Assembly: GCA_964554805.1 (NCBI GenBank)
Contig: CAZKPX010000001.1
Location: 381,798 to 445,797, forward strand
Direction of reading: 5' to 3'
DNA from: an uncultured Candidatus Saccharibacteria bacterium
Lineage (GTDB): Bacteria > Patescibacteriota > CAZHWT01
Length of the DNA: 64,000 bases
Made by a program: the position numbers and the translations under genes. The stretch's first letter is position 1. Every line of letters starts with the position of its first letter. Below are positions 849-60,800 of this stretch, piece after piece. Below the pieces are notes generated by a model. It was not told the origin of the DNA. It did no database searches and worked only from the letters and a program-made list of their open reading frames with translations.

Positions 849-990
849 AGGCAAAAGGTAAAGGGTAAAGGGTAAAGGGCAAAGGGCAAAGGGCAAAGGT
901 TGCATAAATGGTAAAAGGCTTGCCATGTGCTCCACTTAGATTTTTAATTTCGTATTTTCATTTTTGCTTTTTGCCTTTTGGTTTTTGATT
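849..990. repeat. Family A palindromic element, copy A1: tandem GGCAAAG/GGTAAAG heptamers, an AT-rich loop, then reverse-complement CTTTGCC heptamers
   Basis: Inverted repeat read directly; same architecture at 2040-2193, 47071-47178 and 52496-52958. Confidence 0.8.
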
Positions 991-2039
991 TAACTTCTAT
1001 GTTTGAACCTAAGTATTCTATTAGCTTGAAAATGATGAAGGATGTGGCGGCTATCGAGGCGGCACGGGAGATGATTGCCAATGCGTCACTGGTGCCGGCC
1101 TGGGAGAGGCAGTTTCGGGAAGAGGCTGCTATGCGGCAAGTATTTCACTCGACTCATATTGAGGGCAATGAGTTGAGTTTTACGGAGGCCAGTCGGGTAT
1201 ATCGGCAGGGGGAAGATGCAGAGGTGTCGGCCCGGGATCGGGATGTGCAGGAAGTTATAAATTATAGGCAGGTTATTGACTATATCAATGCATATCAGAC
1301 TATATCTATAGATGTCGAAACATTGCTTCTGATTCATGCGATGGTGGTGGCTAAGTTGTTGCCGGATAATCAGGCTGGGCATTTGCGGAATGAAGGGGTG
1401 GCGATTATTAGCAATCAAACCAGGCAGGCTGTTTTTACTCCTCCGACCGCCAATGAGGTGCCGAGTCTGGTGGATGAGCTGTTTGACTGGCTAGGTAGTC
1501 AGGAGATGGAGCAGATTCCGGCGCCACTGGTGGCGGGGATTTTGCATTATGAGTTGGTGCGGATTCATCCGTTTGTAGATGGTAACGGACGGACATCGAG
1601 GATAATGGCTTTGCTGGTTTTGTATAGTCAGGGTTATGATATGAAGCAGTTTTTCTGTTTGGATGAGTATTATGACCGTGACCCGGCAAGCTATTATGCG
1701 GCTTTGCAAAAAACGAATGAGACGGGGGATATGACGGAGTGGCTGGAGTATTTTGTAGAGGGCTTGTCGATTGAGTTTAGCCGGGTTAAGAATCGGGTGA
1801 TTGAGTTGAGCCGAGATCATGCCTTGAGGCTGAAGAGAGGGCAGATACGGCTGAATGACCGGCAGATTAAACTGTTGAGCTATTTGGAGCAGTATGAGGT
1901 GGTGGCGAATCCTGAGTTTAAGGATATCTTCCCGGGAGTGTCGGATGATACGGTGTTGCGGGATATTAAGGATTTGATGGAGAAAAGACTGGTGAAGAAG
2001 CGGGGGAAGACTAAGGCGGCTTATTATGTGCTGAGTTAG
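978..2039 (+). CDS. Fic (filamentation induced by cAMP) family protein, class II, with an N-terminal inhibitory motif and a C-terminal winged-helix-like region
   Basis: Fic catalytic motif HPFVDGNGRTSR (consensus HxFx[DE]GNGRxxR); upstream STHIEGN matches the [ST]xxxE[GN] inhibitory helix; the first ATG lies inside the repeat arm, so the start could be the ATG at about 1009. Confidence 0.85.
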   Translation: MVFDLTSMFEPKYSISLKMMKDVAAIEAAREMIANASLVPAWERQFREEAAMRQVFHSTHIEGNELSFTEASRVYRQGEDAEVSARDRDVQEVINYRQVIDYINAYQTISIDVETLLLIHAMVVAKLLPDNQAGHLRNEGVAIISNQTRQAVFTPPTANEVPSLVDELFDWLGSQEMEQIPAPLVAGILHYELVRIHPFVDGNGRTSRIMALLVLYSQGYDMKQFFCLDEYYDRDPASYYAALQKTNETGDMTEWLEYFVEGLSIEFSRVKNRVIELSRDHALRLKRGQIRLNDRQIKLLSYLEQYEVVANPEFKDIFPGVSDDTVLRDIKDLMEKRLVKKRGKTKAAYYVLS

Positions 2040-2193
2040 GGGGAAAGGGAAAGGGAAAGGGAAAGGCAAAGGGCAAGGGAAAGGCAAAGGGCAAAGGGCA
2101 AAAGGCAAAAATTAAAGTAGAAAATCAAAATGCCTGCCAATACTTTTGACCTTAAATTTTAATTTTTGCCTTTTGCCCTTTGCCTTTTGATTT
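2040..2193. repeat. Family A palindromic element, copy A2: GGGAAAG/GGCAAAG heptamers, an AT-rich loop, then inverted CTTTGCC arm
   Basis: Read directly; arms are reverse complements (ggcaaaaattaaagt ... ttaatttttgcc). Confidence 0.8.
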
Positions 2194-2256: not shown

Positions 2257-4012
2257 GGTAGACTGCATGTTGTTTAGAGATTTTACGCAGAAACTGGAAA
2301 TTATTGAGCAGACCAGCAAAAGGAATGAATTGGTGGTGCTGTTGTCGGAGTTATTTACTCAGGCGGGTGCTGAGGAGATACAGCAGTTGGTCTATATGTG
2401 TCAGGGGCGGCTGGTGCCGTTTTTTGAGCCGCTGGAGATTGGGATGGGGGAAAGACTGGTGGCGGCGGCGATTGCGCTGGCTGATGGTGGGACTCAGGAG
2501 GCGGTTTTGAAGCGACTGGGGGAGTTGGGGGATATGGGGTTGACGGCGCAAGAGCGACGAGCGACGAGCGACGAGCGACGAGATCTGACTTTGCTGGAGG
2601 TGTATCGGGGGTTGAGGGATATTGCTGAGACGAGCGGGGTGGGGTCGACTGAGGCTAAGATTGGGGGGTTGGCGGAGTTGTTGAAACAGATGGATCCGGT
2701 TAGTGCCAAGCATTTGGCTCGTATTCCGTTGGGGACCTTGCGGTTGGGGATTGGAGATCCGACTATTTTGGATGGATTTTCTTTTGCTAAGGCTGGAGAC
2801 AAGAGTTTGCGGAAGCCGTTGGAGCGAGCATATAACGAAACCAGCGATTTGGGCATGATTGGTAAGGTGCTGTGGGGGGAGGGAATTGAGGGAGTGGATG
2901 GGTTGAGAGTGTCGGTGGGGCGGCCTTTGCGGTCTCAGTTGCCGGAACGTTTGCCGACGCCGATTAAGGTGCTGGAGAAGATGGGGCCGGTGTTAACTCA
3001 GACTAAGTTTGATGGTTTTAGGACTCAAATTCACAAAATCGGTGACAAGGTGGAGATTTTCTCGCGTAATTTGGAAGATATGACGGGGATGTTCCCTGAG
3101 ATAACTGAAGCTGTTAGTAAGTATGTTAAGGCTGAGACAGCTATTTTGGATGGGGAAGCGTTGGCTTTTAATGGAGAGAGTGGGGAATTTTATCCATTTC
3201 AAGAAACCACTAAGCGGCGTCGGAAGCATAATATTGAGGCTGCTGCTGCTGCCTTACCGCTGAAAGCCTTTTTATTTGATCTGCTGTATGTTGATGGTCA
3301 GCCGATGATTGATAAACCGTTGTTGGAACGACTGGACAGACTAAAGGAGGTTGTAGAAGATCCGACAGATACGTTGTTGATTGCTGAGAGTAAGGTTTAT
3401 GATGAGTCTGAGGAGTTGCAGTTGAGGCTGAGTGAGGCGATTACGGCTGGTCTGGAGGGATTGGTGGTTAAGAGGCCTGATTCTGTGTATACGGCGGGAG
3501 CTCGTAACTTTAATTGGGTTAAGTTGAAGCGACACTCGAATGGTGAGCTGCATGACACGATTGATTGTGTGGTATTGGGCTATATTTATGGTCGGGGTAA
3601 GCGGACTTCGTTTGGAGCGGGGGCGTTGTTGGTGGGGATTTATGATGCTGAGGCGGATGAGTTTAAGAGTGTTAGCAAGATAGGGACTGGTTTGAGTGAT
3701 ATTGAGTGGCAGGAGATTCGTGAGCGTTGCGACAAGATTACTTCTGAAGTTAAGCCGGCTCGGATTGATTCGCAGATTACTCCTTCGGTGTGGGTGGAGC
3801 CTGAGGTGGTAATTGAGGTATTGGCTGATGAGATTACTCGATCGCCGATGCATACGGCTGGCAAGGATGGAACTGAGCCTGGTTATGCCTTGAGATTTCC
3901 TCGATTGGTGAGTTTTAGGGATGACGACAAGCAAGCTGAGGATGCCACGACGGTAGAGGAATTAAAGAAGATGTATACTCAACAGGTAATTGATTCTGGG
4001 TCCATTGCTTGA
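2257..4012 (+). CDS. lig: ATP-dependent DNA ligase of the Lig1-like type with an N-terminal DNA-binding domain
   Basis: Adenylation motif I KFDGFR (KxDGxR), EGLVVK motif and WVKLK motif V; the track ORF starts at 2180 inside the repeat, so the likely start is the ATG at 2257 (MLFRDFTQKLE). Confidence 0.85.
2552..2583 (+). repeat. (GCGACGA)x4 heptamer microsatellite inside the ligase coding sequence
   Basis: agagcgacgagcgacgagcgacgagcgacgag read directly; 28 nt, so it is frame-neutral only as a set of three units; encodes ERRATSDERRD. Confidence 0.85.
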
Positions 4013-4239
4013 TTTTAAAGCTAATAGTGCTGAGTATATTATGTATGCTAAAAGTGGATTATTTTGATTATATATTATACTCAATTTGGAGTTCTGGCAC
4101 TTTTGAGCAAAATCTTAAGCGATAACAGTGTGCGACTGCTAGTCTCCTATGTAAATAAAAAATTTCGTTCAATAACTACATAGAATACATGCTATACTTC
4201 TTCCGTGAACCTGCAGTTGCTTCAAGGAAAGGGATAGGT

Positions 4240-4611
4240 ATGGGCGATTCACGACAAAGTAGGGACGAGAGGGTCTGGCGAGATCTTGCGGCAATGTCTG
4301 CTGAAGACCGGGAAAAGCTTTTTTCTTCTTTGGTGGAGGCTAGGGAACTTATCGAACATTGGGGCGGGGCGATTCAGTTCCTGGGTGCTGGAATAGACCG
4401 GTTGCTCTGGCCGGACATGAGCTCTGACTTGGAGTTTTGCGAGGTGATTGCCCAGACGACTAGAGAGACTCCAGAAGAAGTGCGAGATCGTCTACTGGAT
4501 GCCATTCCAGAAGAGCAGCTCGAGCGAGGAGTATCAGAGAGTTGGGCCATCAGGGAGGCTGGATATCCTGAGTACGTATGGAGCAGAACAGAAATCTCCC
4601 TTTCTCGGTGA
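4240..4611 (+). CDS. hypothetical protein; segment is richer in GC than its surroundings
   Basis: ORF track 4189-4611; an AGGAAAGGGA ribosome-binding-site-like stretch precedes the ATG at 4240 (MGDSRQSRDE...); no recognisable motif. Confidence 0.35.
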   Translation: MGDSRQSRDERVWRDLAAMSAEDREKLFSSLVEARELIEHWGGAIQFLGAGIDRLLWPDMSSDLEFCEVIAQTTRETPEEVRDRLLDAIPEEQLERGVSESWAIREAGYPEYVWSRTEISLSR

Positions 4612-4689: not shown

Positions 4690-4870
4690 TTGTATTGGGG
4701 CTAACCTGTATCCGATATCCGATATCCTATATCCGTGTCTCTATATCCGCCACCGGAAGGTGGTTGGGGTGGGTGGTATCCTGGGGGTCATGGGTATCCG
4801 ATATTCGATATCCCATATCCCATATCCCATATTCGCCACCAGCGGCGGCCTAGCCTTCCGGTACTATTTT
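4690..4870. repeat. cluster of Family B repeats (GATATCCGATATCC units plus gccaccggaaggtgg hairpin)
   Basis: tatccgatatccgatatcctatatccg ... ccgccaccggaaggtgg ... ggtatccgatattcgatatcccatatcccatat read directly; related copies at 9575-9690, 19243-19318, 25596-25651 and 37570-37712. Confidence 0.75.
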
Positions 4871-5269
4871 GGGTGGATTGGGGTGTTGACATGGGAGGTG
4901 ATTTGGGTTATTATCCAGAAGCTTGTTTAACGGCAATGTCTCTGTTAGCCGATCCGGTTAGTTGGGGATTATCCAAAAGCAAGTTTGATTGCGACAATTC
5001 TGTATAAAACTTTGGTTATATATAAGAAGTCGCAGTTTTTCATTAGTAGGTCTTTGTTTAGCTGGTGCTAACTCAGAGAGTGAAGTCCTTTTACAACAAC
5101 ATAACGACAGGAATGCAAGCAAATCTGACGTAATCTAAACGTTCAGATGCATTTCTGAACATGAAATTACGTCAATTTCAAGAGTTAATTACTCCTAAAT
5201 TTAATTTAGGACATGAAACTTCCGATTATTCATGTAACCTTTCGAGGTTTATGGATAACGTACACATTT

Positions 5270-6750
<1,481 letters not shown>

Positions 6751-8038
6751 AAGGAGAAATCTATGTGATTTTCATATCACATGGCAGCTGCATTAACCCC
6801 TCTCACGCGGGGGCAGCATGGTCAACTACTACGTTTTAAGTAATTAGAATATGTAGAACGTTTAAGGTGAAAATCTTAAACTATGGTCTCTAAATTCACC
6901 ATACTCCAAAGAATTTAGGCCACTTCCTGTCGTTATGTTGTTGATAAAGGTTCAATAACAGCCCGTTTGACTCTGTCAGCGGGCTGTGTTGTTGTTATCG
7001 TTGGCTGATTTGAGAATTCAGAGCCTTGTAGGGCTGGTGGTAGCTCGATACGTATGGGCGGTTAATTGTTTGGGCAGTCGGTTAAGGGTAGGCAAGAGGG
7101 TTTGTGCATTGTATTGAATAACCAGGCTACTTGTCGATTATTCAAATGGACTGCATGCTGGGTGATTTCTAAAAACTGTTAATGAATTGAGTTTACTTTC
7201 GTTGTATTTATCAGTTGATAATCAAATCTAGACTCTTGCTATCCCTTTTGATCAATATATTTATACATATAGCGGCTGTGTTAGTATTTCCTTATTGCAG
7301 ATCACTTTTGAGGCTAATACTATTCCTTGTTATTTTATATTAAACACTTATTTGTATATTATTTTTAGTTTATTGTGCTAATTCTTTCTATTTTACTCTT
7401 TGCTGATAGTATATTCTAATGTTATCATGTAACATCTATGATTACTTGATTTTTGTATTATTTAAAATATACTAGTTATTTGTAATCTATAGGGTATGCT
7501 GTTCTTTGTATTGTTGAATATTCTATAGACAATTTTATATCCTGTAATGATTGATACTCTATATATCATTTCTATTATTCTAGACTAATTTCAATAAGTT
7601 CTTAATATTGTTCTATTAGATATATTTGTTTATTTATCGTATTTCGTCTATGATTGCTAGATATTTATCTCTGTATGTTTTCTAATGTGCTGTCTAGCTC
7701 TATTTATTATATGTAAACTCAGAATGATATTTATCAATAATTAGCTTTTATTGAGTAATGCATCGGATATCTTTTGTATCATATTTTGATATTCTATAGT
7801 TTGTTGTTATTGTAACATTATAATGGCTTTAGTATCTTTATCAGTATAATTATATTTTTAATGTTTTAATATTTTGATTGTTTGATCGACTGGCATGATG
7901 TTGTAGAATTGTGTTTAAAGTGACTGTTGCTAGAGAAGATAGATTCTGGTATAGTACGCCATGTCTTTAGGCTTTAGATGACCATCTATTGTTACGCATG
8001 GCGTGTGTTTGATACATATTAAGTAACAGTTACATAGT

Positions 8039-8112
8039 GGCCTCTTGGCCGAGTAGTTAGGCAGCGGTCTGCAAAACCGCGTACAGCGGTGCAAATCCGC
8101 TAGAGGCCTCCA
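8039..8112 (+). tRNA. tRNA-Cys (anticodon GCA), 74 nt with encoded CCA
   Basis: Cloverleaf folded by hand: acceptor ggcctct/agaggcc, anticodon stem gcggt/accgc, loop ctGCAaa, T-arm agcgg-tgcaaat-ccgct, discriminator U73 as expected for Cys. Confidence 0.75.
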
Positions 8113-8311
8113 AAAAATTTGCAGAGCAAATTTTTGAAGTGACGAGTACGAGCGACGAGCACAAAACAATATGATCTAAATAGAATAGTTGCTCAGCTGC
8201 ATAGGTCATGACAATGACCGGTAAATAATAATAAACGAGCGCTTGCGCTCTGGCCAGCAGAGTAGCGGCTTCATTGATAGTTAGTGGTAGCAGTTGAATA
8301 TATCCTTTCGA

Positions 8312-8388
8312 GGGCGATTAGCTCAGCTGGTTAGAGCGCAGATCTGATAAGTCTGAGGTCCATGGTTCGAGTCCATGATCGCCCACCA
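8312..8388 (+). tRNA. tRNA-Ile (anticodon GAT)
   Basis: gggcgattagctcagctggttagagcgcag-atctGATaagtct...ggttcgagtcc...atcgcccacca; typical rRNA-spacer tRNA. Confidence 0.9.
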
Positions 8389-8557
8389 TTTAAGATTTAT
8401 GATTAGTTGCCGTACGTAGTTAATTGTCAGAGCAATGCAATATATAGTCATTTGTTTGATATGGAAGCCATTTTGAGGCTTGACATAGGGGTAGCGAGGT
8501 GTTATATTTGGTTTCGCGTTAGTTGAGCCTTGCACTCCAGATAATTTAATACTATTT

Positions 8558-8633
8558 GGGGCTGTAGCTCAGTTGGTAGAGCGCCACATTTGCAATGTGG
8601 ATGTCTGGAGTTCGAATCTCCACAGCTCCACCA
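8558..8633 (+). tRNA. tRNA-Ala (anticodon TGC)
   Basis: ggggctgtagctcagttggtagagcgcc...ttTGCaa...ggttcgaatcc...cagctccacca; G3:U70 alanine identity pair present. Confidence 0.9.
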
Positions 8634-8952
8634 GAAAAATTGCCTGGCAATTTTTAGTGAAAAGAGAACAGTAGAAGTGAGAAGTTTAGAAGCGAGAAGT
8701 TTGTTCAGCGTTGGATTGGTTTCGTTAGCCCACCCTAACGGAACCTATCTAGGTCTGAATAAGACTTAGCCGATTCAATGCTTTTAGCTGCGGATTGAGT
8801 ACTTTAACAACCGAAAAACAGATTAAATTTGATTTCTATATTTACGAGCCGTAAATATAGAACCAACGTCTTTTTGTTCTTGGTGTAATCGCGAGATTAC
8901 GCTGGGAAACAATGTAGGAAAACGTCAAATAAATCGATCATCTTAGTAAAAC

Positions 8953-12025
<3,073 letters not shown>

Positions 12026-12198
12026 TTGAGTTTTTCTGTCAATTTATTGATAGAAAACGCTAAGGTGATCAAGAATTTGATTTCTTCTCACTAAGAATAT
12101 TGACGTCGTGTATATCAAATTTAGTGTCTCGCACTCGCGTGACCGCTTCTGTTTTTCGGTTGTTAGGGTATTCACCCTAAGAAATGCTTTGACAATAA

Positions 12199-12321
12199 TG
12201 TCTTGGTGATTGATAGCGCTGGTGTCCCACCTCTTCCCATGCCGAACAGAGTCGTGAAAGCTGGCAGCGCCGATGATACTTGGATCGCAAGGCCCTGGGA
12301 AAATAGGTCATCGCCAGGACA
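12199..12321 (+). rRNA. rrf: 5S ribosomal RNA
   Basis: gtcttggtgattgatagcgctggtgtcccacctcttcccatgccgaacagagtcgtgaaagctggcagcgccgatgatacttgg...catcgccaggac matches the 5S consensus; the two ends pair. Confidence 0.85.
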
Positions 12322-15094: not shown

Positions 15095-15182
15095 GGATTT
15101 ATAAAAATATACAAGCTTGCAGCTCTGAGTCGGTTTCAGGTTTCGGGTGTTGGGGTTTCAGTAGCAGGGAGTATGCTGTTTC

Positions 15183-15231
15183 CCTGAAGCCTGAAGCCTG
15201 AAGCCTGAAGCCTGCAATCTGAAACCTGAAC
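15183..15231. repeat. (CCTGAAG)x4 heptamer microsatellite with a degenerate tail
   Basis: cctgaagcctgaagcctgaagcctgaagcctgcaatctgaaacctgaac read directly; a cagggag...tccctg hairpin sits upstream. Confidence 0.85.
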
Positions 15232-15910: not shown

Positions 15911-16221
15911 GTTCATTCTATCTCCGCTCGGGCTTCATGGTCGGGTATTGTGATTTGTGTTCTAACCCACCTTAAAGGTGGTTTACCTAGGCAACCTGCA
16001 AGTAAGCATGTGTAATAACACCCAAGCTTACTTCAGATAAACCGACCTTAAAGCGAGATCAATGTGGCTTTGATATGAGTCGTAAGGTTTAGTGTATGGT
16101 TTGAGGCTGGCTTTGAATTGGATGGCTGAGGGAATAGGGGGATTAGGGTTCATTGTGGTGCTTATTTATTTTAAGGCTAACTCTGTTGAACAAGGTTATG
16201 ACTTAGGCGTATAGTTGATTT

Positions 16222-16857: not shown

Positions 16858-17313
16858 GTCTCTATGATGGTTGGCACTGTCAACTAAAGCGCTATAGTGG
16901 TCTTATGCCTGAAGTATTGTCTGGGATTTTTGCCAAAAGGGCATAGTTTGGAGGAGCCTGAGAGGCTTTTGGTCTCTGATGGGCCGGGAGGCAGAGGGCC
17001 GAAGGTCTGCTGTTCCTGAGGAGTTCGGGCTTTCCATGCTCGCGCAGTTCTCAGAAATGTAAATTTCCTGCGAGCTGGGCTGTGCGCGGCAACCTCTGCA
17101 CACTAAATGACCGGAGGCCATTGCTGATGGCTAATGGCTGATAGCTTATGCCATGAACTGCTTGAACCGGTTGGTTTTGTAGAGGTTGAGATGCTTCGGA
17201 AGTAAGTTCCTAGCTATACTTCGGGACTTTGAGGAGTAGGATCTGACCATCAGCAATCAGCAATGCTTGTGCTTGTACTTGCTCTCGTCCTGTAGGAGTG
17301 TATACTAGCAAGT

Positions 17314-19231: not shown

Positions 19232-19242
19232 GCAAAGCTTGT

Positions 19243-19318
19243 TCAGGTTTCGGATATGGAGACACGGATATCGGATATAGTGAGTTTTCTATATTCGATA
19301 TCCTATCTCCAATATCCC
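19243..19318. repeat. Family B palindromic repeat between rpsA and clpC
   Basis: ggtttcggatatggagacacggatatcggatatagtgag...ctatattcgatatcctatctccaatatcccg; homologous to the insertion inside 23S. Confidence 0.8.
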
Positions 19319-25595: not shown

Positions 25596-25651
25596 AAAGC
25601 AGGTGTCTCTATATCCGTGTCTCCATATCCGCCACTGAAGGTGGCTTATTT
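25596..25651 (+). terminator. Family B half-element ending in the hairpin gccactgaaggtggc followed by ttattt, a likely rho terminator
   Basis: ctctatatccgtgtctccatatccgccactgaaggtggcttattt; the same hairpin core as at 4752-4766. Confidence 0.5.
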
Positions 25652-31709: not shown

Positions 31710-32507
31710 ATGCTGCGGATAATCATAATAGCTCGGGAACGATGGGCCGGAGCTAAGGATGTGTTGGCGGGTTGGTTTGGAGTATCGACCACCTTGAAGG
31801 TGGCGGGACTGCTGGTGTTGCCGGGGTTGTTATTGGTTGGTTATATCGGCTGGGAATTGGCTTCTGTCGATGACCAAGGCGCAGTTAAGGTTTTGTCCAG
31901 CCAAGAAGTTTCGCACCAATCAAGTACTAGTGCTAACCCTATTGAGGCTAGATCTGATAAAAAGATCTGGGTTGATGTGTCAGGTGCAGTGATTAATCCT
32001 GGTGTAAAAGCATTGCCTGAGGATGCTCGAGTGGCAACTGCGCTAGAGGCTAGTGGCGGTTTTAGTGCCGAGGCTGATACGACTTATGTAGCGCAGGTGC
32101 TGAATTTTGCTCAGCCATTGGCTGATGGTGATAAGTTATATATCCCAACTGAGGTGCAAGTTAAGGCATCGATGCCTACTCCTGTGCCACTCCTGACCAA
32201 AATCAATACCGAAGTGCCGTTGCTAACCAAAGCTACAGGGCCATCTTCTGGGTCTGAGCCCACGACTCAAGTAAAACCTTCTCCAGCAACAAGCAATCCC
32301 ACATCTAGTCCCCGTCCGACAACTATAGAAGAGCTTATCAATGTTAACACTGCAGCTGTCAGTCTGCTAGAGGAGCTGCCGGGAGTAGGACCTGCCACTG
32401 CAAGCAAAATAGTGGAAGGCAGGCCGTATGCATCGTTGGATCAATTGTGCCAGGCTATTAACAATAGTAGAACCTGCTCAAGTCTTGAAGGATTAGTGGG
32501 ATTTTAG
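31710..32507 (+). CDS. comEA: competence protein ComEA, a DNA receptor with tandem helix-hairpin-helix motifs
   Basis: C-terminal LINVNTAAVSLLEELPGVGPATASKIVEGRPYASLDQL; N-terminal transmembrane segment. Confidence 0.8.
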   Translation: MLRIIIIARERWAGAKDVLAGWFGVSTTLKVAGLLVLPGLLLVGYIGWELASVDDQGAVKVLSSQEVSHQSSTSANPIEARSDKKIWVDVSGAVINPGVKALPEDARVATALEASGGFSAEADTTYVAQVLNFAQPLADGDKLYIPTEVQVKASMPTPVPLLTKINTEVPLLTKATGPSSGSEPTTQVKPSPATSNPTSSPRPTTIEELINVNTAAVSLLEELPGVGPATASKIVEGRPYASLDQLCQAINNSRTCSSLEGLVGF

Positions 32508-36640: not shown

Positions 36641-37582
36641 GTGAGCGAATATATGTCTAAAAAGAAAAAAGGCGGCGGCAAAGGATGCTTGTTTGTTGTT
36701 ACTTTATTGATAATGGCCGTGATTGGTGGACTGGCCTATTTATGGTGGCCTACAAAGAGCTGGGAAGGCCTTAAAACTGAGATAAATAGTCTGTCTCGGA
36801 CTGTGCAATCAATTGTTAAATCATCGACAGAGAAGCTGGCAGAGCCTTCTAAGGCAGATAAGAAAGTTGCGTATCGCTTTGCTATCTTGTCTGATTCCCA
36901 TGAAGACACGACCGTATTTCCTAAGATTGTCGGTCAAATCGCGGCTCGGCAAGATTTGTCATTTGTAGCTTTCCTGGGTGATGCAAGTAATGCTGGTGAA
37001 TTGTCCAAGTTGCGCGAGGCCAAGGCATATTTAGACAATATAGAAATCCCAGTTCATGTTATACCTGGAGATCATGATAGAAATTGGCTTCCACAAAGAG
37101 ATTTACGCAACTACAAGCAGACATTCGGGGTGACTGCTACCTCCTTTTCTTTCAGTAAAGGTGATGAGTCATTTATCTTTATTGATAATAGCGATTCGAC
37201 TAATGGAATTGATGCAGCTAGCTGGGCATGGTTGGAGGGTGAGCTGGAAAAGCGAAAAGAAACTAACATGTATGTTTTTATGTCAACGCCACTGTATAAT
37301 CCATATTTATCGTTTAAAACAATGGGATCTCAGAACGAAGCAGTTAAGGACCAGGCGGGACAGCTGGCAGACTTGTTGTCTGGCTACCCGGTACAGGTTA
37401 TATTTGCTGGGGATACTCACACCTATTCTCAGTACAAGGATGAGGAGCATAAGTTATCAGTGGTGACGGTCGGGTCTGCTGGCACTAACAAGAACTTTCT
37501 GCCATTGTATGTGGAGGTTGAAATTTACAGTGACGGAAGCTACAATGCAACGAGCATTCCGTACAAAGAAGATGGAAGATAG
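36641..37582 (+). CDS. membrane-anchored calcineurin-like metallophosphoesterase
   Basis: Metallophosphatase motifs SDSHED, LGDASN, PGDHDRN and AGDTHTY; N-terminal transmembrane segment. Confidence 0.7.
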   Translation: MSEYMSKKKKGGGKGCLFVVTLLIMAVIGGLAYLWWPTKSWEGLKTEINSLSRTVQSIVKSSTEKLAEPSKADKKVAYRFAILSDSHEDTTVFPKIVGQIAARQDLSFVAFLGDASNAGELSKLREAKAYLDNIEIPVHVIPGDHDRNWLPQRDLRNYKQTFGVTATSFSFSKGDESFIFIDNSDSTNGIDAASWAWLEGELEKRKETNMYVFMSTPLYNPYLSFKTMGSQNEAVKDQAGQLADLLSGYPVQVIFAGDTHTYSQYKDEEHKLSVVTVGSAGTNKNFLPLYVEVEIYSDGSYNATSIPYKEDGR

Positions 37583-37712
37583 GATATTGGATATAGTTTA
37601 AGCTGGAGACATGCGGCTAGCGACGAGTAAATAACAACTACATAATCGCACAGCTCAGCCCGAAGTTATGTTATATCCCATATCCTATACCCTATATTCA
37701 ATTTAACGTATT
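37570..37712. repeat. Family B palindromic repeat with a 90-nt insert carrying a GCGACGAG motif
   Basis: ggatattggatatag ... gctagcgacgagtaa ... ttatatcccatatcctataccctatattc. Confidence 0.7.
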
Positions 37713-47069: not shown

Positions 47070-47070
47070 A

Positions 47071-47178
47071 AATCAAAGGTAAAAAGGCAAAGGGCAAAAA
47101 TTAAAGTGTAAAATCAAAGATAGTATGCATTCCTTTTTACTTTTAACTTTAATTTTTGCCCTTTGCCTTTCGACTTAT
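47071..47178. repeat. Family A palindromic element, copy A3 (short form: arms back to back)
   Basis: aaaggcaaagggcaaaaattaaagtgtaaaatcaaag ... cttttaacttttaatttttgccctttgccttt. Confidence 0.85.
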
Positions 47179-47195
47179 GATTTTGGAGTTCCCCT

Positions 47196-50900: not shown

Positions 50901-50948
50901 CCACCAAGGGTGGTAAATTAGCGACGGGCGACGAGCGACGGGCGACGG
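50901..50948 (+). repeat. hairpin ccaccaagggtgg followed by the (GCGACGR)x4 heptamer microsatellite
   Basis: ttttccaccaagggtggtaaattagcgacgggcgacgagcgacgggcgacgggg. Confidence 0.75.
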
Positions 50949-51082
50949 GGACAAATCTAGCTACAGGGACTCTAGCATTATCATAGCTCTGTATGGAGTG
51001 TTTAAAATCTGGTGCTGGCTCGTCGCACTGACTAGAAGGAAGCGAGTGACAGGCAAGCGTTATGTGTGTAGAATTGGATTGT

Positions 51083-52495
51083 ATGAAGATTTTGTTTGTG
51101 GCTTCTGAGGTTACTCCTCTTATTAAATCTGGCGGTTTGGCTGATGTTGTGGGCGGCTTGCCGTTGGCATTGGCAAAACAAGGACACGATGTGCGAGTGG
51201 CGATTCCGGCTTATCACGGCATCGATAAGGAGCAGCTTGGTGTACGATTGGTGGCTGAGAATGATTTTCAGGCGGGGAATCAGGCAGTCTCTAGTAAGGT
51301 GTTTGAAGGCTCATTGGCTGGATCGGTGGGGCTGTATTTGGTTGAGTTTGAGCCAGGCTTGGCCCGGCCAGCCTTGTATCCTAGAGTAGAAGATGGTGAT
51401 CAAGATAGATTTGTCATATTTGGATTGACAGTTTTGGAATGGCTGAGGGAGTCGCAGTGGCAGCCGCATTTAATACACGGCCATGACTGGATGACTGGCT
51501 CGTTGATGGCTGAAATAAAACACAGACGCTTGCCGTACGGGACGGTTTTAACAGTCCATAATGGTGCTTATCAGGGGTTGGTAGCTGGAAGCATATGTCA
51601 GTCGCTAGGCCTGGACTATGATCAAGACGAGTCAGGCATGGTTAATCTTCTGCAGGTGGGTTTGGAGCAGGTTGATCGAATAACAACGGTTAGCCAGACG
51701 TACGCTAGGGAGCTGATTGAGTTGGGTGGAGGGCATGGTCTTGAGGCAACGTATAGAAGTAGGCAGGTCGATACAGTTGGGATTATCAATGGTATCGATA
51801 GCGAGCGCTTTAATCCTTGGCATAATCCGTATGTTCAGCCTGGATATAATGCACGGACTGTCGACAAAGCGAAGCAGCAGCATAAGCATTTGCTTCAGAT
51901 TGAGTTTGGATTGCCAGCCAAGCGCGATTTGCCTTTGTTTGGTATGGTAGGCAGAGCTACTCCTGACAAAGGGTTTGATTTAATTGCTGAGGTGATCTCA
52001 TCCACGCCTTTGCTGGAGCAGGCTCAGGTGGTAATTCTGGCATCGCCTGAGGTTGAAACGGTGGAAAAGGATTTGAAGCATCTGGTTAAAAAGTATCCTC
52101 AGAACTTGCACATCTCGGTTGGCTTTGATGAAGCTATGGCTCATCGGATGTATGCGGCGTGTGATTTTTTTATTATGCCGTCTCGGCGAGAGCCTTGCGG
52201 CCTGGTTCAGCTGATTGCCATGAAGTATGGGGCAATACCGATTGTTCATAAAACCGGGGGGCTGGCTGATACGGTGGTTGATATTCGAGATGGCGATAAA
52301 GGCACAGGTATCGTTTTTAGTGATTATGCAGCGCAAGGTTTGGGGAATGCTCTGGGAAGATCAATGGGTCTATATTACGATCACTTGAGGATGCCTGGTA
52401 TGGTTAAAAGAGTGATGAAGCAGGATTGGTCTTGGGATAGGACAGTAGGGGAATATGAAGCGGTGTATGAGTCTTTGGTGAGAAAAGAGGAGTAG
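51083..52495 (+). CDS. glgA: GT5 glycogen/starch synthase family protein, paralog 2
   Basis: IKSGGLADVV KxGGL motif; 470 aa; in tandem with paralog 1. Confidence 0.75.
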   Translation: MKILFVASEVTPLIKSGGLADVVGGLPLALAKQGHDVRVAIPAYHGIDKEQLGVRLVAENDFQAGNQAVSSKVFEGSLAGSVGLYLVEFEPGLARPALYPRVEDGDQDRFVIFGLTVLEWLRESQWQPHLIHGHDWMTGSLMAEIKHRRLPYGTVLTVHNGAYQGLVAGSICQSLGLDYDQDESGMVNLLQVGLEQVDRITTVSQTYARELIELGGGHGLEATYRSRQVDTVGIINGIDSERFNPWHNPYVQPGYNARTVDKAKQQHKHLLQIEFGLPAKRDLPLFGMVGRATPDKGFDLIAEVISSTPLLEQAQVVILASPEVETVEKDLKHLVKKYPQNLHISVGFDEAMAHRMYAACDFFIMPSRREPCGLVQLIAMKYGAIPIVHKTGGLADTVVDIRDGDKGTGIVFSDYAAQGLGNALGRSMGLYYDHLRMPGMVKRVMKQDWSWDRTVGEYEAVYESLVRKEE

Positions 52496-52958
52496 GGCAA
52501 AAAAGGCAAAAGGCAAAGGGCAAAAAAGGCAAAGGGCAAAGGGCAAAGGGCAAAAATTAAAGTTAAAAATATAAAGTGGTGGAATTGTCTTTTGTCTCTT
52601 GAATTTTGATATATAACCTCGGGATTCATTTGTTTCACATCAAGTGCTGGTCTCTGAATCCCCGCAGCCGAGTTGGCTGCATCAATTGCAGGGGGGGGGT
52701 GTCATTATGTTTGTCCTGGATTGCCACTCCGCCAGTCGGCGGCTCGCAATGACATGGGGGAGGTGTCGCTATGTTTGTCCTGGATTGCCGCTCCGCCAGC
52801 TGGCGGATCGCAATGACATGAGGGGGGGGTGATAGTTGGATTGGGCGTGCGGAGTTTATCCTGATCCAATCGGGGCTCGCCATGACGGCGAGGATTGTAA
52901 GTAATCTTTGATTTTTAACTTTAATTTTTGCCCTTTGCCCTTTACCTTTTGACTTACT
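52496..52958. mobile_element. Family A element, long form: Family A terminal inverted repeats flanking a 330-bp cargo
   Basis: Left arm ggcaaagggcaaagggcaaaaattaaagttaaaaatataaag (52496-52575); right arm ctttgatttttaactttaatttttgccctttgcc (52908-52958); the arms are reverse complements and match copies A1-A3. Confidence 0.7.
52701..52895 (+). repeat. tandem 65-nt units (two intact, one degenerate), each a hairpin-containing module ending in a G-run
   Basis: Unit gtcattatgtttgtcctggattgccactccgccagtcggcggctcgcaatgacatggggg repeats at 52701-52764 and 52765-52830; ccgccag-nn-ggcgg hairpin; G-runs of 9 at 52691-52699 and 8 at 52822-52829. Confidence 0.75.
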
Positions 52959-54893: not shown

Positions 54894-57800
54894 ATGCTTG
54901 ACTGGAAACGATTACTCCTGATAATTGGTGTTTGTATAACTGCTGCAGTTCTTGCTGTGGCGATTTTGAATTTTGAGCAGGTTCGGTCTCTGATAATGGG
55001 TCGGGCTGACTTGGGCGATGCCAGGACTTTGAATGGCATGACAGCGGATGAGCTGCTGGCCCTGAGTAAGCCTTTGGATGCCCGGACTTTGAATGGTCAG
55101 CCGGGGTTGTATTATGTGACGGCCGAAAACCTGGTCGGCATCATCGCCCCTGAGCGTTTCTCCGCCTATGATTCCCTGGTGGCTCAAGGCAAGATAGATC
55201 CGGATTCCCAACTGATTACTAATAAGAATTTCCCTAGCCTTCCGAAGGCTAGCCTCGAATCGCCTTCCGAAGGCTCGGGGGTTGGGCAGAGTGATTTGGA
55301 GGCTTTGGCTGCGGGTTTGCGGGTGGAGATGAGTCAAACGTATGTGTCTGAGGTGGAGGCTGGATTGGGGTTGAGTGGGGGTGGAGGATCGGGTAAGGTG
55401 GCTTTGAATATTGTACCGGGAGTGGGGATTATCATTCAGAATGGTCAAGTGATAGCTGCTCTGGGAGATTCGGTAGATTTGCTGGCGGAAGTGGCTGGAG
55501 TGCTACAGATCGCTCATGGGGGCATAGGGCTCAGTTCGCTGATTACTGATGGGCAATTGCTGATGGCTAATGGTGGTGGATATGAGGGTGGGATTTTGGC
55601 GGCGGGGGATGGGGTAGAAATTGCACGAACTGGTAATACTTTTACGTATAGCTTGGATGCGACGGTCTGTCGGACTTCAGGGAACTGTTCGGGAGCTGGT
55701 GGCTCAATTGTGGGTGCTGGAACAGCTGGGCAGTTAGCTTTCTTTACTGATGGCAGCACGTTGTCGAGTGAGGCTGGTTTGAGCTGGAACTCGGGTACTG
55801 ACAGCCTGACGGTGGCAGGTCAGTTGAATGGAGCCAGTGTGAGTACCGGCTGGGTGGATGTGACAGGGCAATATCGGGTTAACGGGGTGGCTTTGAATAC
55901 GACTCATGTCTTGGAAGGCACTAATCTGTACTGGACTCAGGGACGATTTGATACGGCCTTAAGTGACAAAACTACTGATGATCTGGCTGAGGGTTCTGCT
56001 AATCTGTTCTGGACCCCGGCCCGCTTTAATGCTGCTCTGGCAGGCAAATCTACGACTGATGTCGTTGAGGGAACTAATCTGTACTGGACTCAGGGGCGGT
56101 TTGATACGGCTTTCCTGGCTAAGGATACTGATGATCTGACTGAAGGCAGCACGGCTCTTTTCTGGACTAATAATCGGTTTGATCTACGGTTGGCTACCAA
56201 GTCGACTTCGGATATTGGCGAGGGGACAAATCTGTATTACACGGCTCAGCGGTTTAATGACGCCTTTGCTGGTAAGTCGACCACTGACTTGGCTGAGGGG
56301 GTTAATCTTTATTACACTGATGGTCGGGTGTCTGGCAATGCTGATGTGGCGGCCAACACACTGGCTCGCCATGTGGCTGCTACCGTCTCGGATAGTTCAA
56401 CGATTGATTTTAGCATCATCGGCCAACAGATCTCAGGTTCAATTATTCAGTCTGGAATTCAGACTTCTTTGATTACTAATGACGCCGGCTTTATCTCGAC
56501 TATCTCGCTGGCCTCGTTTGATACTGATGACCTGGCTGAGGGATCGATTAATAAGTATTTCTCGGATACTTTGTTTGGCGCTTCATTGGCCACTCGGACC
56601 AGCGATGATCTGGCTGAGGGCTCGGTTAATTTGTTCTTTACGACCGGCCGTTTTGATGCAGGATTTGGCGCAAAGACTTCAGATAACTTAGCAGAAGGAT
56701 CGGTCAACCGCTACTATTCGGATGCCTTATTCGGCACTTCGTTGGCTTTGCGGGATAGTGATGAGGTGGCAGAGGGGTCGACTAACCTGTATTACTCGTT
56801 GAGTCGGTTTGATGCGGCATTTGATAGCAAAACAACTGACAATTTGGATGAGGGTACTAACGCTTTGTACTGGACGGATAACCGTTTTGACCTGCGGTTG
56901 GCGACTAAGTCTACTACAGATATTGTCGAGGGGACGAACTTATATTTTACTCAATTACGGGTGTCTGCTAATGCTGATGTAGTGGCTAATGCGGCGGCTC
57001 GGCATGATGCGGCTACGGTGGGTGATAGTGCGACGCTGGATTTGACGATAGCCGGGCAGTATATTACGGGTACGGTGATTCAATCAGGGATACAGACTTC
57101 GCTGATCAATAATGATGCCGGGTTTGTTGCCAATATTTCCAGCTTTGATACGGATAATCTGACTGAGGGATTGCTTAATCTGTATTGGACGGCAGGGCGG
57201 TTTAATGCGGCCTTTGGCGGTAAGTCGACGACTGATTTGGCTGAGGGGACTAATTTGTACTATACCTCGGTGCGGTTTGATGATGATTTTGAAGGCAAGA
57301 CGACTGATGATTTGAGCCAGGGCTCGACTAATCTTTATTCGCAGTGGTTGAATAATAGTTCGAATATTACTTTTGGTAATAGTGTGGCCATTGGCACAGC
57401 TACGGCTCCGGAGGCTACCTTGGATGTGGAGGGGACATTGAGGGCTAGTGGAGCAGTGACGCTGGCTAATTACACCACTAATGGGGGCATTTTGTATGCT
57501 AATGGTTCAGGCGTATTGAGCCAGTTGGGTCTGGGGACGACTGGGCAATGTCTGGTGTCAACAGAGGGTGTGCCGGCCTGGGGTTCTTGTGCGGCGGCCG
57601 GGACGGTGACGGGCAGCGGCTCTGCGGGCCGGTTGGCTTTATTTGATGGGGCGAATAGTCTGACCAGTAGTGCGGCTTTGTCCTGGAATAGTGTGTCGGG
57701 CCTGCTGGCGATTGATGGTGGTATTTCGATAACCGGCGATATCATTCCAACGACTGACAATACTTATAGTCTGGGTTCGCCGGAGATGTCGTGGATGGAT

Positions 57801-60800
57801 GTCTATATCGGACCGGGATCTTTGTATATTAACGGGCAGAAGGTGTTGCAGGAGTCGGGGGAGAGTATTGTGGTGACGGCTGATTCGGGGCAGAATTTGT
57901 CGCTGCAGACGGCTGGTGGGGGAGATCTGGAACTGATGGCTCAGGGGGCGGGTCTGATTCAGCTGAAGGGCAATGTGCAGCTGACTGGCGGCAGTTCGAT
58001 TACAACTTCTGACACATCGGTGGTGTTGCTGCCAAATGGTTTGCGAGCTGGCAATATTCAGGTGTCGGGCAATACGATTAGCACAACTAATGTGAATGGT
58101 GATATTGCCATTACACCGAATGGGGCGGGGGATACGTATATTACATCGGGGAATTTGGGAGTTGGCAATAGTAACCCAAATCCATTATATCGGCTGGATG
58201 TAACGGGTAGTATTAATGCTACGGGTAATTTTTATGTTAATGGGGCGGCTTTGTCGACGACCAATGTGGCTGAGGGGACTGGTTTGTATTGGACATCGGG
58301 GCGGTTTGATACGGCTTTTGGGGGCAAGACGACTGATGACTTGGCTGAAGGCTCATCGGCTTTGTACTGGACTAATAACCGGTTTGATTTGCGGTTGGCG
58401 GCTAAGTCGACTTCAGATATTGCTGAGGGAACGAATTTGTACTATACAGCTGGTCGGTTTGAGGCGGCTTTTGCTGGTAAGTCGACCACTGATTTGGCTG
58501 AGGGAGTGAATCTTTATTACACTGATGGTCGGGTGTCTGGCAATGCTGATGTGGCGGCCAATACGCTGGCCCGGCATGTGGCGGCGACGGTGTCTGATAG
58601 CTCAACGATTGATTTTTCACTTGTGGGGCAGTTGATTTCAGGAAGCGTTATTCAGTCGGGTATTCAAACATCGCTGCTTAATAATGATGCTGGGTTTATC
58701 TCGACTATTTCTCTGACAACTTTTGATACGGATGATTTGACTGAGGGTGGGCTGAATCTGTATTGGACGGCTGATCGATTCAATAGTGCTTTTGGTGGTA
58801 AGTCGACTTCGGATTTGGCTGAGGGAAGTAATCTGTACTATACGACGGTGCGGTTTGATGCTGATTTTGCCACCAAAGATACTGACGATCTATCAGAAGG
58901 CTCGACCAATCAGTACTGGACCAGTGGTCGGTTTGATAGTGCTTTGGCAGGCAAGGATAGTGATGATGTAGCTGAGGGTTCGACTAATCTTTATTCACAG
59001 TGGTTGAATAATAGTTCGAATATTACTTTTGGTAATAGTGTGGGGATTGGTTCAGCCAGTGCGCCGACTGCTACGTTGGATGTGACGGGTACGTTAAAAG
59101 TTAGCGGGGCAGTGACTTTGGCTAATTACACGACTAATGGCGGCCTGCTTTATGCTAATGCTTCAGGTGTTCTATCACAGTTGGCAGCAGGAACGACTGG
59201 ACAATGTTTGCAGGCTAATACGGGAGCTGCAGCGAGCTGGGGGACTTGTTTTGCTGTTGGGGATGACTCTTTGAATTTTGATAAGTTGGCTGATGCCCTA
59301 ACTCTGGATGCTTCGACTTCGATTGCTTTGGGAGCGTTTACTTTGAGTACGTCTGGTACTGGTGGGATTACCTTTGGTCATACGGGAGCTACGACTTTTG
59401 CTGGTACGGTGACTTCGGCTGGACTATTGACGGCTTCGAATGGGTTTACGTTAACTACCGGCTCGTTGTCTTTGCCTAATAATGTGATTACGGATGCTAT
59501 GGTATCTAATACGCTGACTTCGTCAATCTTTATTGGGTCAGGGTCAACTACTAATGCAGTGGATCTGGGCACGGCTGAGGTAGCTGGGACATTAGCGATT
59601 GCTAATGGTGGTACTAACTCAACCGCTACACCGACGCAAGGTGGGATTGCCTATGGAACTGGTAGTGCTTATGCCTTTACTGGGGCTGGAGCTACAGGGC
59701 AGTGTTTGACGAGTGATGGAACCAATACGCCAGTGTGGGCAGCTTGTGAGACTGAGGTGGGGAAGGATTGGGTTCAGCATACCCTGCCTGAAGATAATGG
59801 TTGGACTTCTGTGGCATATGGTAATGGAACCTATGTGGCTGTAGCTAATAATGGAACTAATAGGGTGATGACGAGTACGGATGGCAAGAACTGGAAGGTG
59901 GGTCCTGCAACAGAAGCCAATGTTTGGGATTCGATAACTTATGGAAACGGTATATTTGTGGCAGTGTCTTCTGACGGTACTCATCGCGTTATGACCTCGC
60001 CTGATGGTATCACTTGGACTGCTAGACTGGTGGAAAGTTTGGCTTGGCATTCCGTTGTCTATGGGGACGGAAAGTTTGTAGCAGTGGCTAGCGGCGCTGG
60101 CACTAATCAAGCAATGACTTCTCCAGATGGCATTACCTGGACTACTGGCTCTATATCGACAGAGCCATGGAGGCAGGTTGCCTATGGTAATGGCATGTTT
60201 GTGGCTACAGCAGACAACAATGCTTTAGCAAGCTCTCCTGACGGTATTACCTGGACGAGTAGAACTTCGCCTTTGTCGGGGGGGATTTGGTCTATGGTTT
60301 ACGGTAATGGTCAGTTTGTAGCAGTGGCAATTGGTGGCGCAAATAGGGTCATGACTTCTCCTGACGGTATTGCCTGGACCGCTAGGACTGCAGCCGAGGC
60401 TAATGATTGGTTTGGTGTGACTTATGCCGAAGGCGTATATGTGGCGGTAGCTAGCAATGGTACCAATAAGGTTATGACCTCTCTGGATGGTATAACCTGG
60501 ACGGCTCGAAGTGCCCCTACCAGTGGCCTATGGAAATCTGTAGTTTATGGCAATGGTCAGCTTGTAGCGGTTGGTTGGAATGGTACTAATCGAGTTATGA
60601 CTTCTGGTTCTCCAACTCAAACCATTATCCCTCACAACAACATCTATCAAGGCGGGATGACGGTGAATGATGGGTTGAAGGTGAGTGGGAAGACTACTTT
60701 GACTTCGAATGAGACGGTGAATAAGGGGAGTGAGTGGGTGTCCCATGAGGGGGTGGAAGGTCACTGGCTATCAGTTGCTTACGGTAATGGGCGATATGTA

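Follow-up and report, generated by a model that had tools for sequence, protein, structure and literature searches.

A dispersed family of heptamer palindromes

Do the palindromic repeats on both sides of a Fic gene mark that gene as mobile, or do they belong to a wider pattern of which the Fic gene is only one neighbor? The question arises from an earlier note on 64 kb of contig CAZKPX010000001.1 (hereafter the window; 46% G+C), from an uncultured member of the Patescibacteriota, which described a dispersed family of G-rich palindromes (here family A) with two copies flanking Fic. Our results favor the wider pattern. The best explanation, to which we assign a probability of roughly 60%, is that family A consists of lineage-specific, non-autonomous palindromes built of G-rich heptamers that were inserted at operon junctions, where they would act as hairpins in RNA. 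The Fic gene itself appears to be an ordinary, positionally conserved chromosomal gene.

The dispersed, hairpin-forming palindromes of the earlier note were recovered at essentially the same positions. Its count of five copies, of which it listed four, was revised, since an nhmmer profile built from the arms recovered exactly eight arms in the window and nothing else (E-values 9e-8 to 4e-15), and therefore four elements of 115–460 bp. The first copy, A1 (847–991), is old and degraded, with a G-rich heptamer array (847–902), an interior (903–935), and a T-rich right arm (936–991), although both arms are still found by the profile (E-values 3e-9 and 9e-8). A2 (2040–2193) starts on the base right after the Fic stop codon with an unpaired G-rich 5′ extension (GGGAAA/GGCAAAG; 2040–2079), followed by a left arm (2080–2130), a loop (2131–2143), and a right arm (2144–2193). 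A3 (47070–47184), located between the MreB stop and the start of a gene for a GT4 protein, is the most complete palindrome; its arms (47070–47118 and 47135–47184) enclose a 16-nt loop and both outer ends are present (AAATCA...TGATTT). In A4 (52494–52955), a left array and arm (52494–52577) and a right arm (52904–52955) enclose a 326-nt interior (52578–52903) packed with unrelated small hairpins, and the left part overlaps the TAG stop of a starch synthase gene (51062–52495). All four copies are inverted pairs, and the offset between the preceding stop codon and the start of the element is 0 to -2 nt in A2, A3, and A4.

The tandem repeat program TRF confirmed the G-rich 7-mer tracts, with period-7 arrays at 850–899 (7.1 copies), 2062–2110, and 52501–52555. 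The heptamer units are GGGCAAA/GGTAAAG, and the arms follow a ~45-nt consensus (AAATCAAAAGGyAAAGGGCAAAGGGCAAAAATTAAAGTtAAAAATCAAAG). A2, A3, and A4 have ~45 nt in common with a specific order of units, including a stretch that is not perfectly repeated (AAATTAAAGTnnAAAATCAAAG); a 24-nt arm consensus matched the window six times at ≤3 mismatches, against 0.00 matches expected. The outer end AAATCAAAAGG is common to 5/8 arms, namely all four right arms and the left arm of A3. At the left ends of A1, A2, and A4 this sequence is replaced by longer arrays of G-rich 6/7-mers without a counterpart in the right arm, and these 5′ extensions alone break the symmetry of the palindromes. The arms are 78–93% complementary (93% in A4), so that "exact reverse complement" was too strong a description. 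In each copy the two arms mirror one another at three variable positions, which indicates that the palindromes are kept symmetric. The observation that all copies share one orientation was set aside as meaningless, given that both strands of a palindrome read the G-rich arm first.

The interior of A4 holds repeats of its own, with two tandem 64-nt palindromic units (TGTCATT...AATGACA) at 52692–52825. These units represent a further type of small palindrome (TGTCATT...GCAATGACA / GTCATTCCTGCG...), with related motifs at 655–700 and 280–295 and in a relative (L021, 3560–3590).

Empty sites in relatives

To place the copies in context we compared their junctions with those of relatives. For Fic and the downstream ATP-dependent DNA ligase gene these were L015, L017, and L024 (ligases 69–74% identical to that of the window), and for the MreB/GT4 and starch synthase/GalT junctions L022 and L023, which were found through the starch synthase gene (66–70% identical). 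Named homologues point to a Microgenomates type of Patescibacteria (Levyibacteriota, Daviesbacteria). The distance from the Fic stop to the ligase start is 227 nt in the window (A2 plus 74 nt) versus 8, 5, and 6 nt in the three relatives; MreB and GT4 are separated by 126 nt (A3 plus 12 nt) versus 1 nt in L022 and 2 nt in L023; and starch synthase 2 and GalT by 581 nt (A4) versus 2 and 65 nt, respectively. The nhmmer search detected no family A arm in any syntenic locus of the relatives, and the core of the family does not pre-exist at any of these three junctions there.

Since the junctions are tight and element-free in the relatives, A2, A3, and A4 appear to be lineage-specific insertions into formerly tight, co-directional housekeeping junctions (Fic/ligase, MreB/GT4, and starch synthase/GalT). 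The search for empty sites that the earlier note had proposed was thus positive for all three copies, and their absence from relatives runs counter to its alternative of structural elements at conserved sites. Taken together, the empty sites and the ~45-nt arm that the copies have in common favor dispersal from a single source.

The target-site duplications that the earlier note had suggested looking for were not found at the flanks of family A. Both ends are intact in A3 alone, which has none (flanks TATTAG and TGGAGT), and the right flanks of the four copies (ATCAG, TGGAG, ACTAT, and AACTT) show no direct repeat and have nothing in common. With regard to the Fic/ligase junction, an extra spacer of 74 nt (2194–2266, + strand) separates A2 from the ligase ATG at 2267. 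This spacer is absent from the relatives by sequence comparison and contains GATAAT and a Shine-Dalgarno-like AGAGG motif; a promoter scan did not flag it.

The Fic gene is a conserved neighbor

The Fic gene (999–2039, + strand) encodes 346 amino acids (aa) and matches Pfam PF02661 (E-value 1.9e-18). The protein carries the Fic core motif HPFVDGNGRTSR and, upstream in its N-terminal part, an inhibitory-type motif STHIEG. These two motifs agree with the earlier label of a class II Fic protein, a class that, according to the scheme of Engel et al., is reportedly recognized by the core HPFx(D/E)GN(G/K)R and an N-terminal inhibitory motif (S/T)xxxE(G/N). The suggestion that its start codon lies inside the element was not borne out. 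TTG 978 is merely the first possible start, and an in-frame ATG follows at 999, 8 nt past the end of A1. Translation from this ATG gives MFEPK..., orthologues begin with MFEP or MFSP and are 347–351 aa long, and a gene call made independently on a Logan contig also places the start at 999. Because N-termini, lengths, and gene call match, we take ATG 999 as the start.

Orthologues of Fic are located immediately upstream of the ligase gene in L015, L017, and L024. In all three, the order of a ~90-aa open reading frame (ORF), Fic, and the ATP-dependent ligase is kept, as is the wider gene order. The ~90-aa ORF, which is hydrophobic, always precedes Fic (338–613 in the window; 8466–8735 in L015; 8403–8675 in L017; 8607–8876 in L024). 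It has no Pfam match, and may encode a functional partner of the Fic protein.

The conserved gene order argues against the proposal that Fic sits in a mobilisable or recombinogenic cassette, similar to a composite transposon or an integron cassette. What had suggested it was the presence of copies on both sides of the gene, to which we can add a family-A-like array located 111 nt past a Fic-type gene in L006. The bracketing is less striking than it looks, considering that an adjacent pair among four randomly placed copies over ~45 intergenic gaps is expected in ~25% of cases (1-C(42,4)/C(45,4)). Furthermore, the order of the three genes is element-free in the three relatives with 5–8 nt between Fic and ligase, the remaining copies flank mreB and glycogen-metabolism genes, and other family-A-like matches flank murE-like and sufC/sufB genes and not Fic. 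An integron attC identity was likewise rejected, as the element ends (AAATCAAAAGG / CCTTTTGATTT) lack attC-type core sites (RYYYAAC/GTTRRRY). On this evidence, we regard the cassette as scarcely credible.

Some features of the Fic surroundings in other genomes are recorded here. In L006, an unrelated Saccharibacteria metagenome-assembled genome (MAG), a short Fic-type gene is followed by the inverted heptamer pair noted above, which lies upstream of rpsP (3798–4603). We judged the association of such arrays with Fic to be coincidental, given the different genes flanked by the other matches. In L015, short heptamer arrays made of different units (8813–8860; CTGAAGA x3, CTAGCGA x2) are present in the gap ahead of Fic, which is where A1 lies in the window. 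Just ahead of the Fic ATG, L015 and L017 share a TTTGCC(TTTT) motif with a faint likeness to the right arm of A1, which is too short to decide on shared ancestry.

Predicted folding and a possible role in RNA

Three family A copies are predicted to form hairpins of 33–46 bp with loops of 13–16 nt. The RNA folds reach -54.9 kcal/mol in A2 (z-score -5.1) and -48.3 kcal/mol in A3 (z-score -6.7); the degraded A1 has a z-score of -1.9, and its fold needs 10 G.U pairs. Through such pairs the + strand of A1 folds better than the - strand (-38.8 vs -17.7 kcal/mol), and the same was seen in other heptamer families of the window, in family C (-53.2 vs -32.3 kcal/mol) and also in D and E. We rejected this asymmetry as proof of selection at the RNA level, because the + strand is richer in G than C and in T than A, and an excess of both bases would yield the same pattern by mutation. 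This strand asymmetry is very strong. Every 4-kb bin has a + strand GC skew between +0.15 and +0.38, and T is more frequent than A in 15 of 16 bins, the exception being 8001–12000 with the 23S rRNA gene. The + strand also encodes nearly all genes of the window.

G-quadruplex (G4) formation was considered as a unifying feature and also rejected, as canonical motifs (G3N3-4 x4, sense strand) are found in A1 and A2 only; A3 has no motif and that of A4 is non-canonical. With regard to the bidirectional, insulating terminators suggested in the earlier note, a T-rich tail (5–8 T per 10 nt) can be read after the last GCC of every right arm, the predicted pairing partner of this tail being the A-rich outer left arm. 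Only 12 nt separate A3 from the GT4 ATG, with GGAG 9 nt ahead of the ATG, and so GT4 expression needs read-through. A full stop of transcription at A3 therefore seems unlikely from the layout of the junction. No Rfam family was matched by the copies, the only signals being sub-threshold generic microRNA-precursor hairpins, and the A4 interior was also without a match.

Based on these predictions, we propose the following sequence of events. After insertion, the G-rich arm beside the upstream stop codon would have expanded by slippage in A1, A2, and A4, while old copies such as A1 would have decayed through C→T changes. Given their location inside operons, the copies would be transcribed together with neighboring genes and the transcripts would fold into intercistronic hairpins of 33–46 bp. 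Such hairpins could serve as partial terminators or attenuators, as barriers to 3′-exonucleases, or as processing sites of the RNase III type, and would thereby uncouple the expression of neighboring genes. It is likely that they attenuate, process, or stabilize transcripts in one of these ways. Dispersal itself may have proceeded by copying and insertion without duplication, via hairpins or single-stranded DNA or through template switching during replication.

A different small hairpin (CCACC-N3-6-GGTGG) occurs four times in the window versus 0.11 expected (4750–4763, 15967–15981, 31789–31803, and 50901–50913), with a variant at 25634–25648. These hairpins mostly stand directly after genes or beside heptamer arrays, and may be native terminators.

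Other heptamer families and an insertion in 23S rRNA

Family A is one of several palindrome families made of heptamer arrays that have proliferated here and not in the relatives. At least five such families (A–E) were identified in the window. Under a looser threshold, 13 period-7 tandem arrays were found in the 64 kb, compared with one in ~115 kb of relatives. Under a strict threshold, the window contained nine period-7 segments and three of period 6, with none at periods 4, 5, and 8–11; no other period from 4 to 12 showed an enrichment comparable to that of period 7. The arrays are nearly all intergenic, and many form inverted pairs just past stop codons.

Family B has the units GGATATC/GAGACAC, is present at 19242–19318, 37583–37700, 4705–4836, and 25603–25650, and keeps the specific unit order TATATCC-GATATCC-GTGTCTC-CATATCC at four loci. 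Among the copies listed, the palindrome at 19242–19318 lies just after the S1 gene (-36.1 kcal/mol, z-score -5.7); that at 37583–37700 has a ~70-nt interior and begins on the base after the stop of the gene at 36641–37582; and the half-arrays at 4705–4836 are located upstream of the 16S rRNA gene. The family C palindrome (GGTTTCA / CCTGAAG; 15132–15230) follows purA (-55.3 kcal/mol, z-score -5.2). Families D and E are represented at 17123–17264 and 50920–50950, respectively.

Heptamer palindromes also reach into structural RNA. The 23S rRNA gene carries an insertion of 109 nt (9571–9679, + strand) in the helix 25 region, between positions 583 and 584 of the large-subunit (LSU) rRNA model, that folds into a ~55-bp hairpin (-64.5 kcal/mol, z-score -8.0) with a family B heptamer palindrome at its center. 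Insertion of such palindromes into transcribed RNA therefore takes place and is tolerated. Intervening sequences at helix 25, as in Salmonella and Leptospira, are excised by RNase III. Like these, the insertion is a long extra hairpin at the helix 25 position, and it may likewise be removed as an intervening sequence, in which case the 23S rRNA would be in fragments; unlike them, it is a heptamer palindrome also present between protein genes. The rRNA operon (5269–12319) has an unusually long 16S-23S spacer (2.2 kb) with tRNA-Cys, tRNA-Ile, and tRNA-Ala and a very AT-rich stretch of ~0.8 kb (about 7150–7950).

An array is also present within a protein gene, where (GAGCGAC)x4.4 lies in frame in the ATP-dependent DNA ligase gene (2552–2582) and encodes ERRATSDERRD, a loop that is variable among orthologues. 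Similarly, the TrmD gene of the Saccharibacteria MAG L006 contains a family-A-like array (5860–5914) that is translated into a Lys-rich insert. Repeats of another kind make up most of a giant ORF (54894–63998; >3,000 aa) that runs off the window; these are 123-nt (41-aa) tandem repeats with the motif W.SV.YGNG.FVAV...G.NRVMTSPDG..W, with 153-nt repeats near the start of the ORF.

Occurrence in other sequence collections

A 21-nt core pattern of family A proved very rare in public data, with four single matches in GTDB representatives and eight in JGI metagenomes; none of them is from the source genome, which neither of the two scans covered. Several of these matches are coding coincidences, and a few are similar heptamer hairpins in other contigs resembling the Candidate Phyla Radiation (CPR), for example at a sufC/sufB junction. 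There were no core matches in viral contigs, and BLAST searches of phage and plasmid sequences gave no match. Short-read contigs of the same organism (SRR16798008; 100% identical to the window) break off exactly within A2 (end at 2185), A3 (start at 47147), and A4 (end at 52554), so that the palindromes fragment metagenome assemblies.

Weighing the alternatives

Several observations count against family A as inserted palindromes with a role in RNA and need to be considered with it. The elements may simply be neutral or selfish, without function. A scan of ~30 ORFs of the window revealed no transposase domain, and a consensus terminator scan flagged no family A copy, the stems being far longer than typical and the loops 13–16 nt. 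The better folding of the + strand can be explained by its base bias. Lastly, the relatives are only 66–80% identical at the protein level, so that insertion is deduced from absence in three relatives and not from a recent polymorphism. Among the alternatives that do invoke mobility, a classical MITE (miniature inverted-repeat transposable element), i.e., an element that arose by deletion from an insertion sequence, is bounded by terminal inverted repeats, is moved by a transposase in trans (cut- or copy-and-paste), and has no host function, would account for small, multi-copy elements with inverted arms and the defined outer end AAATCAAAAGG, for occupied and empty sites between relatives, and for the nesting of other small palindromes in the A4 loop. 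It does not fit the lack of a target-site duplication at A3, the ragged arrays at 3/4 left termini, or the organization of the whole element as one palindrome instead of terminal repeats around unrelated DNA, and neither a transposase domain in the scanned ORFs nor a match in the phage, plasmid, and viral collections came to its support. Of the earlier comparison with MITE-like and REP-like (repetitive extragenic palindromic) elements, the inserted palindromic repeat thus stands; a target-site duplication, defined left termini, and a transposase in the window do not. We consider a classical MITE unlikely.

A purely local origin, in which heptamer slippage and fold-back template switching would have created each copy in place with no relation by dispersal, draws on the many different heptamer units in the same genome, the asymmetric arm lengths, and the in-frame array in the ligase gene; polymerase slippage has also tentatively been invoked for heptamer over-representation elsewhere (PMC4692102). 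Slippage acting separately at each locus would not produce anew the specific ~45 nt shared by A2, A3, and A4 with AAATTAAAGTnnAAAATCAAAG (six matches vs none expected), nor the unit order of family B at four loci, and these shared sequences make a local origin improbable. A speculative proposal, which we also consider improbable, is a recent burst by an unrecognized mechanism working in 7-nt steps, which would have dispersed diverse heptamer palindromes without target duplication to post-stop sites, to helix 25 of the 23S rRNA, and in frame into proteins (the ligase here, TrmD in a Saccharibacteria MAG). If true, the burst would be the work of a novel enzymatic activity or of hairpin-borne, non-autonomous elements of a new class, and the hairpins could have been co-opted as the intercistronic RNA processing or termination signals of the lineage. 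The elements might instead act as DNA, with G4 structures or cruciforms affecting replication, recombination, or transcription and the RNA hairpin being incidental. The canonical motifs in A1 and A2 and the in vitro G4 formation of heptamer repeats from Xanthomonas and Nostoc (PMC4692102) are in line with such a role. We find it very doubtful, considering that A3 has no motif and A4 no canonical one, that the window as a whole has six G4 motifs versus 3.3 expected on this G-rich strand, and that families B to D are not G4-prone.

Our preferred reading, dispersed palindromes at operon junctions, has consequences beyond this locus. Even in the tiny, gene-dense genomes of the CPR, structured repeats can proliferate in a lineage-specific manner, and such repeats separate formerly coupled genes and even invade rRNA. 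The occupied and empty junctions are compact test cases for termination, processing, and stabilization by hairpins. A tempting inference is also removed, in that a toxin-like Fic gene on a mobile cassette appears to be the wrong picture.

Comparison with known systems

Long palindromic repeats of the MITE type (ERIC/IRU, Correia/NEMIS, and RUP) are 100–150 bp long, have inverted arms, and lie in transcribed intergenic regions, where their co-transcribed hairpins can alter mRNA stability or termination. Family A differs from these in having no target-site duplication, in termini that are expandable heptamer arrays, and in that no cognate transposase was found in the window. REP sequences are GC-rich palindromes of ~20–40 nt with a conserved GTAG head, which form REPINs when two are inverted and are associated with RAYT transposases. 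Similar to REP/REPIN and elements derived from IS200/IS605, family A is hairpin-based, lacks target-site duplications, and is extragenic at the 3′ side of genes. Its arms, in contrast, are A/T-rich heptamer arrays that are not self-palindromic, and window scans detected no Y1/HUH transposase domain. Membership in the REPIN/RAYT system was rejected on these sequence features.

Heptamer repeats as such are known from several lineages. The short tandemly repeated repetitive (STRR) sequences of heterocystous cyanobacteria (Calothrix PCC7601) are heptamer tandem repeats that are intergenic, lineage-restricted, and present with several unit sequences per genome. In Beggiatoaceae, TAACTGA heptamers are direct repeats just upstream of start codons, with one indirect repeat among 170 sets (PMC4679880). 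The TAACTGA repeats resemble family A in their heptanucleotide period, intergenic location, and abundance in particular lineages only, and differ in being direct, upstream of starts, and almost never inverted pairs.

The closest known parallel to family A comes from Xanthomonas (GGGAATC) and Nostoc PCC7120 (GGGGA(C/T)T), whose G-rich heptamer repeats were reported from ~185 loci (Rehm et al. 2015, PMC4692102). These repeats are 89–93% intergenic, with a mean distance of 28 nt from the upstream ORF vs 160 nt from the downstream ORF, and in 70–75 cases they are convergent inverted pairs able to form stem-loops. They are mostly transcribed and variable between related species, and no function has been established for them (PMC4692102). 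Family A shares with them a 7-nt unit that opens with a G-run, a tandem period of 7, an intergenic location adjoining the end of the upstream ORF, and the arrangement as convergent inverted pairs. Unlike in Xanthomonas and Nostoc, the family A arrays flank a conserved core of ~25 nt that is not perfectly repeated, the outer end is defined, stems are long with almost no interruption, a canonical G4 motif is present in only 2/4 copies, several unrelated heptamer families coexist, and the host is a Patescibacteria/Microgenomates-like organism of the CPR. Family A is a new repeat family within an already known heptamer-repeat phenomenon, and it extends this poorly understood phenomenon of Xanthomonas, cyanobacteria, and Beggiatoaceae to the Patescibacteria.

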